A stretch of DNA of 64,000 nt from Pseudomonadota bacterium. Its GTDB lineage: Bacteria; Pseudomonadota; Gammaproteobacteria; Acidiferrobacterales; UBA6901. Position 1 is the first letter of the stretch, and each line of letters opens with the position of its first letter. The stretch covers positions 35,198-99,197 of the forward strand of contig DAHXOO010000005.1 in the NCBI GenBank assembly GCA_027364845.1, in the 5' to 3' direction. Position numbers and translations under genes: made by a program. Positions 35,689 to 42,034 of this stretch are shown piece after piece. The notes beneath the pieces were generated by a model, which was given only the letters and a program-made list of their open reading frames with translations, was not told the DNA's origin and did not search any database.

Positions 35689-36036
35689 GATGATCGTGCC
35701 GCCGCTGTGGCCATTATCGAGTTGACCCCGCCATGTTAACACACTCCGTTCCGGGCGGCCGGTGTCGCGCAAATGCTTCGACACCGTGCGATACAGGCAC
35801 GCTGGTCCTGAACCGGTGTGTCGCGGCGGCTTTCCCGGACGACCGTTGCGGGAGTACCTGTTGCCTCCGGCGGTTTTGGCGGCTATTTGCGGACGTGTCT
35901 GTCCCTACAGGCTGCAGTTGCGAGCCCCAGGGCCTGTTTGCCGCTGGATATAGGGCCGTCGGCAGCGTTTTCGGGCGCCACGCCGAATCGCTGCCTTGCG
36001 TAAAACAATCGAAGTGGCGGGTCGTGCCTGAGGCAT

Positions 36037-36057
36037 CTGCATGCTCCGCGCATGCAG
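36037..36057. repeat. 8-bp-stem hairpin CTGCATGC-N5-GCATGCAG downstream of the senA-like gene
   Basis: Perfect inverted repeat about 120 nt past the stop. No U-tract. Confidence 0.3.
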
Positions 36058-36178
36058 GCGAAACCGAACTCAGGTCATATTGCTGGTCCAATGGCGGCAA
36101 TCACGGTTCCTGGACCAATGCGCCGGAGGCCTGTCTTGTGGGCCTGTTTCTGTGGTGCCGACTTTCCAGAGGAAGGCG

Positions 36179-37477
36179 CTAACGTGCGCATGTGCGAAAC
36201 CCCGCGAAGATGTCGTTTCGATCGGGCGTATAAAAATTGCGCCATGAATTCCACACCAGACGCGCCGGGGTCGCCCAGCTTCCACCACGCAGGACCTTGC
36301 GTGTTCCGAACCACTGCTCGGAATAGTCGCGGTAAGGGTCGGGAGAAAAACCGGGATAGGGCTCAAAGGTGGATGCGGTCCATTCCCAGACGTTGCCGAT
36401 CATCTGTCGGCAGCCGAAAGCGCTGTCGCCCTGTGGCAGCGCCGCGACGTCAATGCTGGTGAGCGCGCGGCCATTCAGATTGGCATGAGTTTCGGTCGGG
36501 GGTTCGTTTCCCCAGGGATAACGGCGTTTCCGTGTACCATCCACGTGGCCACCCGCTACCTCGCAGGCTGCCGCCATTTCCCATTCAGCCTCGGTAGGAA
36601 GCCGCCGCTCTGCCCATCGACACCAGGCCTGAGCTTCGTGCCAGTTCACGTGCATCACCGGCGCGTGCGGTGCCAGCACAGTCCACCGGTCGAAGCGACG
36701 CATCTCCCAGTCAGCGCCGTTCCTACGCCAGTACTTTGGTGCTTCCATGCCGGCTTGCATGCGCCATTCCCATCCGGGGTTGTCCCAGAACTCGCGTCGG
36801 TGGTAACCGTGATCATCGACGAAGCTGGCGAATTCCATGTTGGTTACCGGTGCCCGTGCTATCCGGAATGGCGCCAGTTCCACCGGGTGTGCCCACTTCT
36901 CGTTGTCGAATACGAAGCTCCGGGTCGGCGCAGCGCCGAGCAGGAAGCGGCCACCTGGAACATCCAGATCTCCCGGCAACGGTCCGTCCGACATCGATTT
37001 CGCAAAAGCTCCAGCCGGCGCTGGGTAACCCAATGTCTGGCGCATGTAGGTGAATGCTTCCGTATGCATGTCCTGGTGGAAAATGACGAGCAGGTAAAAG
37101 TATGCATCCTTTTCCGGGACCGAATTCCCGTGGCCACGCAAGCGCTGGCCCAGTGTGTCCTTCACTGCCTGCAGATATGCGAGGGTATCGGCGACCGATG
37201 GCAAGGGCAGGTCCCAGCGCCGGTCGTGGGCGATTGCGGAGGAGTCATACAGAGAATCGGCCGCGATCATCAGTGGAGTGCGCCGGTCCAGATTGCGCAG
37301 AACCCAGTATTCATTGAACCACGCCAGATGTCCGACTTCCCAGATCGGCGGATTCACAATAGGCAGACGCGGGCCGAGCATCTGATCCGGGCTGAGGTCT
37401 GTGATCAGGCGCAGGGTGCGCGCGTGCGCATCGTCGAGATGCGCGAGAAGTTCTGCCGCTGTGACGAAATTCGCCAT
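36179..37477 (-). CDS. senA: EgtB-family non-haem-iron enzyme (DinB_2 + FGE-sulfatase domains); by context a selenoneine synthase SenA candidate
   Basis: 432 aa. DinB-type His ligands (WEVGHLAWFNEYW; FHQDMHTEAF = HxxxH). C-terminal FGE/SUMF1 fold (WEWT..., VLRGGSWAT, FRTCAR). Divergent neighbour of a SenB-like GT and close to selD. Confidence 0.65.
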   Translation of the reverse strand: MANFVTAAELLAHLDDAHARTLRLITDLSPDQMLGPRLPIVNPPIWEVGHLAWFNEYWVLRNLDRRTPLMIAADSLYDSSAIAHDRRWDLPLPSVADTLAYLQAVKDTLGQRLRGHGNSVPEKDAYFYLLVIFHQDMHTEAFTYMRQTLGYPAPAGAFAKSMSDGPLPGDLDVPGGRFLLGAAPTRSFVFDNEKWAHPVELAPFRIARAPVTNMEFASFVDDHGYHRREFWDNPGWEWRMQAGMEAPKYWRRNGADWEMRRFDRWTVLAPHAPVMHVNWHEAQAWCRWAERRLPTEAEWEMAAACEVAGGHVDGTRKRRYPWGNEPPTETHANLNGRALTSIDVAALPQGDSAFGCRQMIGNVWEWTASTFEPYPGFSPDPYRDYSEQWFGTRKVLRGGSWATPARLVWNSWRNFYTPDRNDIFAGFRTCAR

Positions 37478-37491
37478 ATACTTTAAAGTAT
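37478..37491. promoter_or_regulatory. perfect 14-bp palindrome ATACTTTAAAGTAT in the 41-bp senA/senB divergent spacer
   Basis: Abuts the senA-like start codon. A TACAAT -10-like hexamer (37498-37503) follows towards the senB-like gene. Confidence 0.4.
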
Positions 37492-37518
37492 GTTCGATAC
37501 AATGTCCCTGCGACTTCC

Positions 37519-38466
37519 ATGCGCATTCTGATTGTGACGCCGGCGCCGCGCGGATCGCGCTCCGGAAACCGCACAACCGCGCTCCGCTGGGCCAGAATCC
37601 TCAGAGCCGAGGGCCACCGGGTTTCGGTCACGGTCGGGTACGACGGTGCTCCGGCAGATCTGCTGGTTGCCCTGCATGCCTGGCGCAGCGCAGCTGCGGT
37701 GCAGCACTACCGGGAACGCCATCCGTTCAGGCCATTGATTGTAGCACTGACGGGCACGGACCTTTATCGCTTCCTGCACACCGACCGCGAGATCACGTGC
37801 CGCTCCATGGAGCTCGCTGACCGGATTGTGGTTCTGCACGAGGCCGCAATTGGTACCGTTCCTGAGCCGCTGCGCCACAAGGTGCGGGTGATTCTGCAAT
37901 CGGCGGAAACGCCGCCCAAGAGAAAGCCATCGCTAGGGAGCTTTGATATTTGTGTGATCGGGCATCTGCGTGATGAAAAGGACCCGTTGCGTACAGCCTA
38001 TGCGGTGCGCGACCTTCCGCCGCAGTCGCAGGTGCAGGTGCTGCATCTGGGGAAGGCGCACACCGATGCCTGGGCGCAGGCAGCACACGAGGAGATGGCG
38101 CGAAATCGGCGATATCACTGGCTCGGTGAAGTTCCGTTCCGGCAGGTGCGGCAGGTGTTTTCGCGCAGCCGACTTATGGTGCTGTCATCGCGCATGGAGG
38201 GGGGCGCCAACGTGATCTCGGAGGCCGTGGTGGCCGGGGTGCCAGTGGTCGCCTCGCGCATTGACGGATCGGTGGGCCTGCTTGGCCCCGACTATCCGGG
38301 ATATTATCCGACCGCAGATACGGCAGCGCTCACCGAAATGCTATTGCACGCGGAGCGTGACCCGGCCTTTTATTCGCGTCTGCAGGGCGCCTGTGCACTG
38401 CGTGCGCTGCTATTTGATCCGAAACGTGAGCAGCAGGCATGGCACGACGTACTGGCCGGGTTGTAG
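37519..38466 (+). CDS. senB: GT-B glycosyltransferase, TIGR04348/SenB-like selenosugar synthase candidate
   Basis: 315 aa. MRILIVTPAPRGSRSGNRTTALRWA N-terminus and GT4-like EGGANVISEAVVAGVPVV. Sandwiched between the EgtB-like and SelD genes. Confidence 0.6.
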   Translation: MRILIVTPAPRGSRSGNRTTALRWARILRAEGHRVSVTVGYDGAPADLLVALHAWRSAAAVQHYRERHPFRPLIVALTGTDLYRFLHTDREITCRSMELADRIVVLHEAAIGTVPEPLRHKVRVILQSAETPPKRKPSLGSFDICVIGHLRDEKDPLRTAYAVRDLPPQSQVQVLHLGKAHTDAWAQAAHEEMARNRRYHWLGEVPFRQVRQVFSRSRLMVLSSRMEGGANVISEAVVAGVPVVASRIDGSVGLLGPDYPGYYPTADTAALTEMLLHAERDPAFYSRLQGACALRALLFDPKREQQAWHDVLAGL

Positions 38467-38486
38467 CAGACGGGTAATTTCCTTCA

Positions 38487-40751
38487 TCATAGGATAAGTG
38501 TTACCGGCGCGGCTGTGTCGCTCGGCTCCAGGACCTGTCCTATGATGGCACTTTGGATGTAGCCCAGCTGGTGCAGATCGGCGAGGCAGGCGGCGGCGTT
38601 TGCTTCGGGGATGGACGCCAGCAAGCCTCCGGCCGTCTGAGGATCAAACAGCAGCGGGTAGCATGCATGTGTGGCGGTGGCCTCGAGGTTGCGGATAGCC
38701 CGCCGCAGACGGATGTTCTCCGGCTGTAGCGAACTGAAAATTCCCCGAGTCAGGGATTCGATGGCTCCTTCCAGAACTGGAAGGCTGTCGAGCTCTACTT
38801 CAACGTCGACCTGTGAGGGGCGGGTCATCTCCATGAGATGACCCAAAAGCCCGAAGCCGGTGATATCGGTGCAGGCATGCGCTCCGTGGCGTAACAGGCA
38901 GTCGGCGGCGGTGCGGTTTGACTGCAGCATCGATTCCAGCGCCGCATCTATCCAGCGCCCCTTGGCCTGATGGCGCATGTCAGCGGCGAACAGGGTACCG
39001 GTGCCCAGGGCTTTCCCAAGAATGAGCCGGTCTCCCGGACGCATGCCGCTCTTGCGAAGAAGCCGGCTGCGCTCCGCCAAGCCATTCACGCTCAGTCCGA
39101 AGGCAAGCTCGGCGCCCTCACTCGTATGTCCGCCAACGAGCGCGGTTCCAGATTCCTCGAGTGACACGGCGGCGCCGGCCATCAGTTCGTAGAGCGTCTG
39201 TTCGATCTTGGCCTCGGAACCGAACGGAACGCTGGCAATCGCGAGGGCGGACTGTGGCTGCGCGCCCATCGCGTAGATGTCGCCGAGGCTGTGGTTGGCG
39301 GCGATGTTGCCGAACAGATAGGGATCGTCGACGATGGCGCGGAAGAAATCCACTGTGTGCACCATAACCTGTCCGGCTGGGACTTCGACGACTGCAGCGT
39401 CATCCGCATCGCGCATGCCGATGAGGATATCAGCGCGCGATATTATCGGGATGCGCGCCAGCACGCGGGTAAGCACCGTGCTGCCGATCTTGGAGCCGCA
39501 TCCACCACAGCGCATCGCCAACTCGGATATTTCACGTATCGCCACGCCGTCGTTCCGGTGACCCGGCACGACCGTGCCAGCGTTCATTCCATTCAGCGGC
39601 GGTAGATCCCGATAACGCTGCATCCAGCGCCGGTCTATCCGGTCCTTCCAGCGCCATACGAGCGCCCCTTCCAGTGTCCACGGCCCGCGCGAAGCGACCG
39701 CGCGGCGGTCCCCAGTGCTGATCAGAGCGAGAAACCGGCGCTGCGGAAAGAACGCGCTGAGCGTTTCTCCCCTTGATGCGTGCCGCAAGTTTGCGGCCAG
39801 CACCGGTCCTTGGCGAACCGCCATCACGCCGGATTTCGCACGTAGATGATTGCGCATGGTCGCGATGTCGCCCGCGGCGAAAACGCCCGGATGAGAAACG
39901 GACTGGAGGCAGTCGTCAACTTCGATGAAGCCGCCAGGCGTGGCCGCGAGCCCGGTGCGTGTAATCCAGCCTGGTGCTGCCGCATTCGTTGCCCAGATGA
40001 GCGCATCGTATGGAAAGACCAGGTTAGAGCCCGAATGCGTGGCGAGAAGATGTTCTGCCGTGATTTCGTGCACGCGATGCGCGAGATGGACGGATACGTT
40101 TCTTTCGGAAAGGATGCGGGCGAATTTCCGCCTTACGCGCTCGTGGTGCGTGGGAAGAATTTGCGGTGCTTCCGAAAACAGGTGGAACTGTACCGGCGCG
40201 GTGGCACAGCTCGTTGCGATGCGATGCTGCAGCGAAAGCGTGAGTTCCACCCCTCCGGCGCCACCTCCGACCACCGCAATGCGAAATGAACGCGTGGCAT
40301 CGCGTACGCGATGCTCGATTGCGTTCCATCCGATGAGAAAACGGTCGACAGGCTTTACCGGAAGCGAGTACTTTGCCGCTCCCGGAATGCCGGCTTCGTC
40401 CGGCGTCGAACCGATGTCGATGGAAAGAACGTCATAGGGGACCTCTGGGCGTCCACGGCACAATACCCGATTATTTTTCAGGTCCAGCCCGATCATCTCG
40501 TCGTGATATAGACGGCAGCCCGCGAAGTGTGCGAGTGGGCGCAGGTCGACATGAGCCTCATCGAAGTCGTAGTGGCCGGCGATGTAGCCCGGCAGCATGC
40601 CGGAATACGGCGTATGGATGTCGCGTGCAATGAGAGTCAGGCGCACACCTGGCTCGGGCCGCATTCCGAAAGCCTTAAGTACGGCTACGTGGCTATGTCC
40701 GCCACCGACGAGTACCAGGTCTTTGCGAACAATATATGGTTGACCTTGCAT
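38487..40751 (-). CDS. selD: bifunctional FAD-dependent pyridine nucleotide-disulfide oxidoreductase (NDH-2-like) / selenide, water dikinase SelD (SenC-like)
   Basis: 754 aa. Two Rossmann loops (LVLVGGGHSHV, IAVVGGGAGGVE) in the N-terminal half. SelD half has active-site CGGCGSKIG (Cys, not Sec), DAAVV, and AIR-synthase-like GGHTSEG. Confidence 0.85.
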   Translation of the reverse strand: MQGQPYIVRKDLVLVGGGHSHVAVLKAFGMRPEPGVRLTLIARDIHTPYSGMLPGYIAGHYDFDEAHVDLRPLAHFAGCRLYHDEMIGLDLKNNRVLCRGRPEVPYDVLSIDIGSTPDEAGIPGAAKYSLPVKPVDRFLIGWNAIEHRVRDATRSFRIAVVGGGAGGVELTLSLQHRIATSCATAPVQFHLFSEAPQILPTHHERVRRKFARILSERNVSVHLAHRVHEITAEHLLATHSGSNLVFPYDALIWATNAAAPGWITRTGLAATPGGFIEVDDCLQSVSHPGVFAAGDIATMRNHLRAKSGVMAVRQGPVLAANLRHASRGETLSAFFPQRRFLALISTGDRRAVASRGPWTLEGALVWRWKDRIDRRWMQRYRDLPPLNGMNAGTVVPGHRNDGVAIREISELAMRCGGCGSKIGSTVLTRVLARIPIISRADILIGMRDADDAAVVEVPAGQVMVHTVDFFRAIVDDPYLFGNIAANHSLGDIYAMGAQPQSALAIASVPFGSEAKIEQTLYELMAGAAVSLEESGTALVGGHTSEGAELAFGLSVNGLAERSRLLRKSGMRPGDRLILGKALGTGTLFAADMRHQAKGRWIDAALESMLQSNRTAADCLLRHGAHACTDITGFGLLGHLMEMTRPSQVDVEVELDSLPVLEGAIESLTRGIFSSLQPENIRLRRAIRNLEATATHACYPLLFDPQTAGGLLASIPEANAAACLADLHQLGYIQSAIIGQVLEPSDTAAPVTLIL

Positions 40752-40831
40752 TCACGGCCTACTGGCTTGGTGACGCCGTAGATCGCTCCGTACGTGCGCA
40801 GGTTTCGCAATCGCGGTCATGCGCCAAGCGG

Positions 40832-41509
40832 CTACTTGATCTTCAGCAGTTCAATGTCAAAAATCAAGGTCTCGTTCGGCCCGATGACACCGTCTGCGCC
40901 GCCAGCGCCGTACGCGAGATTGGCGGGGATGTAGATTCTCCACTTGGATCCAACGCGCATTAGCGGGAGCGCCTGCTGCCAGCCTTGGATTACCCCACTG
41001 AGCGGGAATGTGGCCGGCCTTCCACGCTTGTACGAGCTGTCGAACACAGTGCCGTCGAGCAGGAGTCCTTGATAGTTGGCGACGACAGTATCGCTGATCT
41101 TCGGCTTGGGACCCTTGCCTTCGGTGATTACCTTGTACTGCAGTCCGCTGGGAAGTGTGACGACGCCCGGTTTTTTCCCGTTTTCGGCGAGAAACTTGGA
41201 TCCAGTTTCCAAGTTCTTCTGCGCCAGGGTGGAGTAGTCAGCCTGGCGCTTGTGCTGGTAGGCAACAACCGCTGCGCGCATCTGGTCGCTGTTGAGCCTT
41301 GCGGGTTTCCCGTTCTCCGCGTCCTCAATCGCCTGCAACAGGGCCTTGGGATCGATATCCATGTGTTGACGCTTGAGGTTCTGCCCGATCTTGTACCCGA
41401 CCACATAGCTGAGGCGCTGTTTGTCGGTGGTCAGTTTTGGCGAAGTCGCGGCGCAGCCGCCCATGAAAACTGCGACCAAAGTGAAGGTAAGTGGAACCCG
41501 GATGCTCAT
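40832..41509 (-). CDS. FKBP-type peptidyl-prolyl cis-trans isomerase, lipoprotein (Mip/FklB-like)
   Basis: Lipobox FMGGC. N-terminal dimerisation helix region and C-terminal FKBP core (FDSSYKRGRPATFPL...GWQQAL...WRIYIP..LAYG). Confidence 0.9.
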   Translation of the reverse strand: MSIRVPLTFTLVAVFMGGCAATSPKLTTDKQRLSYVVGYKIGQNLKRQHMDIDPKALLQAIEDAENGKPARLNSDQMRAAVVAYQHKRQADYSTLAQKNLETGSKFLAENGKKPGVVTLPSGLQYKVITEGKGPKPKISDTVVANYQGLLLDGTVFDSSYKRGRPATFPLSGVIQGWQQALPLMRVGSKWRIYIPANLAYGAGGADGVIGPNETLIFDIELLKIK

Positions 41510-42034
41510 GGCTGTCCCTCAGAGATTGCGTGTTTGGAGTTCTCGCCAAGCAAATAGGACGGCGGTGCCGATTCCTTGTCGTTGGGAGGCGGGTTGTTGG
41601 TGGGTAACGTTCCCGCCGGTGCCGATCCCGCTACAGTGCCATGTTCCCACAACCACCGGTTCGAGCCAAGTGCGCCGATGCTGCTATCGGCGCCGCCGCG
41701 CCCGCCAGAAAGTCCTATCGCCGCAATGTGAGTAATTGTGGAATGACTGCGGGAGTGACCAGTCGATCCCATATTGAAACGACGCCGGTCCCGGAACCCG
41801 AAGTCGTCCGCGCTTTCAGGCTCCGCTCCGACAGGCCTTGGCCTTTGACCGAAGTGCGTGAACACCATCAGGTATCCGGGATCCATGCAAGTATGGCGCA
41901 GCATTGACGATGTCAGTTCCTTGCTGCGGACAGGCCTTGCATGGACATGTTACAGTGACTGCGACTACGGAATCACTAGCACCCTTCGGTGCGGGTTCCT
42001 GATTTTCCAAGTGCAACCAGCGGGAAAGCGACTG

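Follow-up and report, generated by a model that had tools for sequence, protein, structure and literature searches.

A flavoprotein fused to SelD in a selenoneine gene cluster of a gammaproteobacterium: family, setting and a putative role in selenium supply

What does an NAD(P)H-dependent type of flavoprotein contribute when it is fused to a selenide, water dikinase (SelD) within a gene cluster for selenoneine? The question is raised by a gene on the minus strand, at 38487..40751, of a 64,000-nucleotide stretch of contig DAHXOO010000005.1 from an Acidiferrobacterales bacterium, referred to here as the window. It encodes a protein of 754 residues (plus the stop codon) in which an Ndh-like flavoprotein precedes SelD, and it is assigned as the SenC gene of the locus from its open reading frame (ORF), domains, homologues and AlphaFold2 model. 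The best explanation overall, to which a probability of about 0.6 is given, is that this Ndh-SelD fusion is SenC and that its reductase half feeds the SelD half. The parts of this explanation differ in strength. Judged from the sequence, membership of the Ndh-SelD family together with a SenC role is almost certain, while a reductive supply of selenium by the flavoprotein is plausible and stands at even odds.

The fusion itself has a history. Zhang et al. 2008 (PMC2432076) described Ndh-SelD proteins and proposed that the reductase provides selenium in reduced form, and such fusions made up about 40% of the Cys-SelDs in ocean metagenomes (Zhang and Gladyshev 2008, PMC2398784). It is by far the commonest SelD fusion, with the added domain always N-terminal and with a scattered distribution over bacteria and protists (Mariotti et al. 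2015, PMC4561486). The fusion, its CxxC motif and the reductase-supply idea have therefore been known since 2008; the selenoneine (sen) context is absent from those papers. In a preprint of 2022 (10.1101/2022.04.13.486033), Kayrouz et al. defined the sen cluster, with the senABC genes of Variovorax paradoxus; SenC is a SelD homologue there and the fusion is unmentioned. No published description of a fused SenC was found, and a remark in the final sen journal paper or its supplement is possible. An earlier sequence-only reading of the window had stated that the fusion exists in databases and knew of no demonstrated function for its reductase half, which matches the literature and database findings.

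Two domains in one reading frame

The frame starts with ATG at 40751, ends with the stop codon at 38487-38489 and has no in-frame stop over 754 codons; read on the plus strand, 38487-40751 contains many stops. The 754-residue ORF of the sequence-only reading is thus present and uninterrupted, with only its strand, minus, to be added. The three motifs quoted for it were located at residues 16-21 (GGGHSH), 162-167 (GGGAGG) and 415-423 (CGGCGSKIG).

Three Pfam domains were identified, Pyr_redox_2 at residues 10-315, AIRS at 450-558 and AIRS_C at 571-744. Among the NCBIfam models, TIGR03169 ('Nterm_to_SelD') scored 477.7 bits over residues 11-380 (cut-off 310), and TIGR00476 (selD) scored 308.2 bits over residues 413-717 (cut-off 125). 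Domain boundaries, whose determination by alignment had been proposed earlier, could be set from these matches and from structure comparison. The N-terminal NDH-2-like FAD/NAD(P)H flavoprotein domain covers residues 10-380 (39612..40724, minus strand), as delimited by TIGR03169, the NDH-2 structure 4NWZ and Foldseek. It is followed by an interdomain linker, residues 381-412 (39516..39611, minus strand), and by the C-terminal SelD, residues 413-754 (38490..39515, minus strand), placed by TIGR00476, the SelD structure 3U0O and Foldseek.

By sequence, the closest match of the N-domain in the PDB is the Caldalkalibacillus NDH-2 4NWZ (E 6e-19, over the whole length), followed by YjlD, FSP1 and Ndi1. 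By Foldseek, the fold is also closest to NDH-2, with a template modelling (TM) score of 0.86 and a root-mean-square deviation (rmsd) of 2.4 A to 4NWZ, and a TM score of 0.85 to S. aureus NDH-II; sulfide:quinone oxidoreductases (SQR) scored 0.73-0.78, below the NDH-2 values. The C-terminal half matches E. coli SelD 3U0O (E 2.6e-47) and also Aquifex SelD by sequence, and its TM scores to SelD structures are 0.75-0.83. This half is a complete Cys-type SelD, which would make selenophosphate from reduced selenium and ATP. Together with TIGR03169 and TIGR00476, the matches to 4NWZ and 3U0O uphold the original call of a two-Rossmann flavoprotein joined to a complete Cys-type SelD.

A full-length AlphaFold2 model, calculated from an alignment of 135 fused homologues, had a mean predicted local distance difference test value (pLDDT) of 94.4 and a predicted TM score (pTM) of 0.93. 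In the model, both domains are predicted to form one compact body. The linker was the sole stretch of lower confidence (pLDDT 57-78 at about residues 381-410), and its length, about 30 residues here, and its sequence vary among homologues. Among the Foldseek matches there was no solved structure spanning both halves.

Since some genomes do carry the two genes separately, it had to be considered that an assembly error or a frameshift had joined them here. Such an artefact is ruled out, with a probability that is practically nil, by the open frame and by the homologues. The protein search gave at least 8000 scored candidates, each of them significant; the top 120 were 718-816 residues long, covered 95-100% of the query and shared its three Pfam domains. 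Among these are proteins from other assemblies, some of them named Acidiferrobacterales, with 73-80% identity to the query, and the identical architecture occurs in different phyla. Among 301 sampled genomes of the class, TIGR03169 exceeded its cut-off in 32, and 25 of the 32 matches lie in open frames of 717-911 residues. The possibility of two ORFs in related genomes, raised earlier as a check, leaves the fusion standing.

The flavoprotein was also searched for on its own. Against 1.84 billion cluster representatives (profile-free search, clusters at 50% identity), a query with only the N-domain gave 2273 clusters at E <= 1e-30. Sorted by a screen of motif and length, the best 150 relatives comprised 76 fusions that have the Cys loop of SelD and 13 that lack it, along with 42 stand-alone proteins (about 380 residues) and 20 of odd length. 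One alphaproteobacterial metagenome-assembled genome (MAG) carries a fused homologue with an in-frame stop between the N-domain and the SelD match (locus L056, 8001-10134). This stop may mark a pseudogene or a recoded codon, or may result from a sequencing error.

The gene is an ordinary member of the known fusion family defined by TIGR03169 plus TIGR00476: the domain order is the same, both cut-offs are passed, the SelD is of Cys type and the CxxC is invariant. Nothing structural distinguishes it from the published Ndh-SelD fusions; what differs is that it is the second SelD of its genome and lies in a sen cluster. It shares the two-domain layout of TIGR04369 ('oxidoreductase/SelD-related fusion protein', fusion_not_SelD). 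Members of that family lack the Cys loop, whereas the protein described here keeps C418 and K421, and membership was rejected on score (458.1 bits against a cut-off of 700).

The selenoneine locus and the genomic company of the fusion

The fused gene adjoins two genes of the selenoneine pathway. SenB, the selenosugar synthase, is encoded at 37519..38466 on the plus strand (TIGR04348, 434.7 bits, cut-off 300), convergent with the fused gene and with 20 bp between the two stops. SenA, the EgtB-like selenoneine synthase, is encoded at 36179..37477 on the minus strand (NF041186, 523.3 bits, cut-off 420), divergent from senB. The senA start was placed at the ATG at 37477, which is Met34 of the longest ORF, and the NF041186 match begins at residue 39 of that frame. 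Because it adjoins senA and senB, the fused gene is taken to act as SenC. The V. paradoxus SenC is likewise a SelD homologue clustered with SenB and SenA, and by sequence the product to be expected here is also selenophosphate for the selenosugar. The two proteins differ in that the one in the window is longer at its N-terminus by about 400 residues and has the CxxC loop. Gene order differs from that of V. paradoxus as well, with senA and senB divergent and senC convergent with senB.

A second selenophosphate synthetase was found elsewhere in the same assembly, a 184-contig draft of 3.15 Mb that is 96% complete. This plain selD, on contig C151 (L001 1402-2613, minus strand; 434.5 bits), has the loop SHAGGCGCK. 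A SelB-like ORF directly precedes it, and selA (564.6 bits) is about 2 kb away. Since a plain selD stands with selenocysteine (Sec) genes and a fused one with sen genes, the organism has two selenophosphate synthetases. From this arrangement of genes, the plain SelD is assigned to selenocysteine and the fused SelD to the selenoneine cluster, as its SenC. SelU was not found in this 96% complete assembly, and egtD, which would supply hercynine, is present on contig C116 (TIGR03438, 405.7 bits, cut-off 290.9).

How regularly the fusion accompanies sen was then read from the 301 genomes of the class, where TIGR03169 exceeded its cut-off in 13 of 14 genomes with SenB and in 19 of 286 without it; as the genomes are related, these counts are a description and not a statistical test. 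The co-occurrence with senA/senB that had been suggested for checking is therefore seen. The 13 genomes with both comprise 11 confirmed fusions, one cut by a contig end and one stand-alone copy (genome G149). Eight of the 11 confirmed fusions, the present one included, lie directly beside senAB, one is about 6 kb away and two are elsewhere. The sen clusters of the class strongly prefer the fused form. In genome G021 (94% complete; locus L027), divergent senA and senB genes 37-39% identical to those of the window were observed, and no SelD and no TIGR03169 was found; either a contig is missing or another selenium or sulfur donor is used.

Across phyla the picture is broader. Clustering of neighbours in a cross-phylum sample gave selU/mnmH (NF008751, 500 bits) as the commonest neighbour of the fused gene, at 27 fused loci. 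In a stricter tally of 57 intact in-frame fusions, selU was present in 25 and senB in 8 within the fetched flanks. A maximum-likelihood tree of 72 fused proteins placed all 16 sen-linked ones in a single 30-row group (Shimodaira-Hasegawa-like approximate likelihood ratio test, SH-aLRT, 85), which sits in a 39-row clade (SH-aLRT 99) and covers Gamma-, Alpha- and Betaproteobacteria. The selU-linked fusions fall in other clades of the same tree. The protein of the window groups first with a MAG protein of 73% identity and next with one from Acidiferrobacterales.

Since selU is the commonest neighbour and the sen-linked fusions form one group of the tree, the fusion is to be regarded as a form of SelD of general occurrence, one subgroup of which is associated with sen. 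Its interpretation as a sen-specific device is ruled out, and with it the view of the sequence-only reading that a dedicated selenometabolite pathway creates the special need for a built-in reductase. The fusion also occurs in Sec-using genomes (PMC4561486). Its presence beside selU, beside sen and in Sec-using genomes suggests that it acts before selenophosphate is made and does not belong to any single pathway that consumes it.

The same evidence bears on the proposal that the reductase acts downstream, reducing a selenoxide or selenenic acid intermediate or the diselenides of the selenosugar or selenoneine, and does not feed SelD. Two observations fit this: the SenB product was isolated as the diselenide (10.1101/2022.04.13.486033), and the sen clusters of the class nearly always include the domain. 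However, the fusion is most often found beside selU, a setting without such intermediates, it is shared by the Sec-using genomes just mentioned, and the domain is fused to SelD and not to SenA or SenB. A downstream role is accordingly the least probable of the functional alternatives considered here, with only a small chance of being correct.

Further features of the locus can be given briefly. The start codons of the divergent senA and senB genes are only 41 bp apart (37478-37518). A consensus scan of 36000-42000 found no sigma-70-like promoter, and terminator-like matches there were no more frequent than expected by chance. Housekeeping genes with no relation to the pathway flank the locus, with an RNase Z-like gene and ClsB at one end and an FKBP isomerase and PepN at the opposite end.

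Conserved residues of the flavoprotein and of the SelD loop

The nucleotide-binding residues of the flavoprotein are well preserved. The first dinucleotide-binding loop, G16-G-G-H19-S-H21 (40689..40706, minus strand), is the putative FAD site, in which a His stands for the third Gly of GxGxxG; G16, G17, G18, H19 and H21 are each retained in 90% or more of 131-135 relatives. The second loop, G162-G-G164-A-G-G167-V-E169 (40245..40268, minus strand), is the putative NAD(P)H site, with G162, G164 and E169 invariant in 135/135 fused proteins. Across 131 N-domains, fused and stand-alone, G16-G-G-H19-x-H21, G162-x-G164-x-x-G167-x-E169 and G294-D295 are nearly invariant. Further near-invariant motifs of the family in this set are Y49-S-G-M-L-P-G55, K133-P134, W262, K306-x-G-V-x-A-V-R313 and W366/K369/I372/D373. 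The FAD- and NAD-binding residues, the absence of which would have spoken against a flavoprotein, are therefore in place on proper alignment.

C79, C98, C182 and C281 of the flavoprotein half are variable, and none of the alignment columns of the 131 N-domains is dominated by Cys, so that the conserved redox Cys suggested earlier for this domain was not found. SQR, GR, TrxR and LipDH belong to the same flavoprotein superfamily; the flavoprotein half here differs from them in having no conserved redox Cys. It therefore belongs neither with the classical disulfide reductases nor with the enzymes of SQR type, and the earlier label 'disulfide oxidoreductase' is right as the name of a Pfam family and wrong as a function. 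It also follows that the electron acceptor cannot be a Cys of the flavoprotein. Thiols are conserved at just two positions of the whole protein, C415 and C418 in the SelD loop.

The closest relatives of known structure are the NDH-2 enzymes of Caldalkalibacillus thermarum (4NWZ) and S. aureus (5NA1), with which the N-domain has in common its two-Rossmann fold (TM 0.85-0.86, rmsd about 2.5 A) and an NADH loop of the pattern GxGxxGxE. The first C-terminal helix is shared as well, I379 and D380 of NDH-2 being retained as I372 and D373 in the 4NWZ alignment. The N-domain differs from them in its GGGHxH first loop, in the YSGMLPG motif, in having G-V-x-A-V-R for AQxAxQ and in having SelD in place of the anchor helices. 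In NDH-2, AQxAxQ is the quinone-site motif, and the quinone head is clamped by Q317 and I379 (PMC6167311). The corresponding segment is K306-S-G308-V309-M-A311-V312-R313 (39813..39836, minus strand), in which AQxAxQ of 4NWZ aligns to G308-V309-M-A311-V312-R313 and the two glutamines, Q317 and Q321, become V309 and R313. G308, V309, A311, V312 and R313 are invariant in the 135 fused proteins. The 4NWZ alignment stops at residue 377, and the linker and SelD take the place of the amphipathic membrane-anchor helices.

These residues are the ones on which a quinone reductase of NDH-2/FSP1 type has to be judged. Such an enzyme would tie the protein to the membrane quinone pool, for electron disposal or to hold SelD at an importer, and would not act on selenium or on SelD. 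The top sequence and fold matches, NDH-2, YjlD, FSP1 and Ndi1, favor it, I372 preserves the clamp residue I379, and packing of V309 against a ring is conceivable. Against this stand the replacement of both glutamines by the invariant V309 and R313, the loss of the anchor helices to the linker and SelD, and the co-inheritance with SelD, selU and sen, which points to selenium chemistry. Quinone reduction is thus regarded as improbable, though somewhat less so than the downstream role discussed above.

The active-site loop of SelD, C415-G-G-C418-G-S-K421 (39489..39509, minus strand), was defined by alignment to 3U0O. Its C418 and K421 correspond to Cys17 and Lys20 of E. coli SelD, and C415 completes a CxxC. 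C415, G417, C418 and K421 are invariant in 135/135 fused proteins, and 119/120 close homologues have the loop MRCGGCG[AS]K. Plain SelDs, including that of the same genome, carry H-x-G-G-C-G-C-K instead. All Ndh-SelD fusions have the CxxC, compared with less than 5% of single-domain SelDs (Zhang and Gladyshev 2008, PMC2398784). A second position with such a pattern was observed at H487 (39291-39293), aligned to the Asn of 'AATNAISD' in E. coli SelD: it is His in 135/135 fused proteins, and the Asn is kept in the plain SelDs of the window's own genome, G149 and G050.

A putative route for selenium and what it would mean

The proposed mechanism joins the flavoprotein to this loop. NAD(P)H would reduce the FAD of the N-terminal half, and the FAD would deliver electrons at the remodelled site that is equivalent to the quinone site of NDH-2. 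The likely acceptor is the C415-x-x-C418 pair, on a flexible SelD loop about 40 residues past the last flavoprotein helix. The pair may hold selenium as a selenotrisulfide or perselenide, or may just form a disulfide. Its reduction would give enzyme-bound selenide at the kinase site with no release of free HSe-, and the bound reduced selenium would be phosphorylated in place with ATP, giving selenophosphate for use by SenB. A more specific form of this proposal can be offered tentatively, at less than even odds. In this form, the Cys-free flavoprotein and the CxxC of SelD would make up an intramolecular relay from NAD(P)H to FAD, to a selenium-bridged C415/C418, to bound selenide and finally to selenophosphate. 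It would explain, for a large group of mostly aerobic bacteria, how SelD is supplied with selenium in the absence of free selenide, and the sen subgroup would allow its selenoneine producers to use oxidised selenium directly.

The conserved cysteines admit another use. In oxic cells a disulfide may form between C415 and C418, and the flavoprotein might serve merely to re-reduce it, the selenium arriving already reduced. Such self-repair agrees with a CxxC that never varies in fusions and is seldom present in plain SelDs (PMC2398784), with an N-domain that has no Cys of its own and with the abundance of fusions in aerobic aquatic bacteria and oxygenic cyanobacteria (partly PMC2398784). It leaves unexplained the stand-alone or split N-domain genes that occur with plain SelDs without CxxC, as well as the N-domains fused to Cys-less SelD-like domains. 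In addition, it is hard to tell from the selenium-supply mechanism, in which a selenium-bridged CxxC is reduced likewise. Self-repair is considered unlikely, while being the strongest of the alternatives.

Several findings weigh against a reductase that feeds SelD. The V. paradoxus SenC works in vitro with Na2Se and dithiothreitol (DTT) (10.1101/2022.04.13.486033), and it is apparently of single-domain size, as residues were mutated only up to 316 in an engineering paper. Since an apparently single-domain SenC is active with Na2Se and DTT, no reductase is intrinsically required. The literature search turned up no biochemical test of the reductase half. Among the best 150 N-domain relatives, 13 are fused to a SelD-like half without the Cys/Lys loop (TIGR04369-like). 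These Cys-less fusions, which have the same length, include P0122, P0125, P0127, P0131, P0139 and P0154, and they show that the flavoprotein is kept even where selenophosphate synthesis seems impossible.

Unfused copies bear on the question in both directions. In genome G050, the split operon L111 (810-4052) consists of selU, a plain selD without CxxC and an ndh-like gene (266 bits, below the TIGR03169 cut-off), with overlapping stop and start codons (1802 vs 1820; 2889 vs 2896). The pairing of the two proteins thus needs no covalent fusion, which speaks for a functional link between them, and it needs no CxxC, which counts against the proposed mechanism. In one genome, 97% complete, a stand-alone N-domain copy is present and no SelD was found. 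Further stand-alone copies form part of a conserved but unrelated cluster that also contains a VTT-domain::MerA-like reductase, DUF547, TIGR04283, TIGR04282 and DUF3047 (Burkholderiales, G101 and G149); TIGR04283 and TIGR04282 are named 'arsenosugar biosynthesis glycosyltransferase' families in NCBIfam.

Two of these arrangements deserve description on their own account. L111 is a split version of the fusion, with the gene order opposite and a SelD without CxxC. Stand-alone TIGR03169-type genes of the conserved cluster were observed at loci L095, L102, L103, L105, L107, L113 and L016 (9396-13692). The last of these, in G149, places a stand-alone TIGR03169 gene 1.6 kb from the sen SelD and was examined as a 'Rosetta stone' for the fusion. 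It was downgraded: because the copy belongs to the separate conserved cluster, its position near sen may be chance and was not counted. The split operon L111 is a better case than G149 for a functional link without fusion.

With these points taken together, the Ndh-SelD fusion acting as SenC, with its reductase feeding SelD, is retained as the best explanation. The Ndh-SelD fusion has been the standing bioinformatic clue to a safe delivery of reduced selenium to SelD since 2008. Here, the fusion occurs in a three-gene pathway with measurable products, the selenosugar and selenoneine, which would provide a simple read-out for the reductase half. The value of the gene is that of a convenient test system for selenium delivery to SelD.

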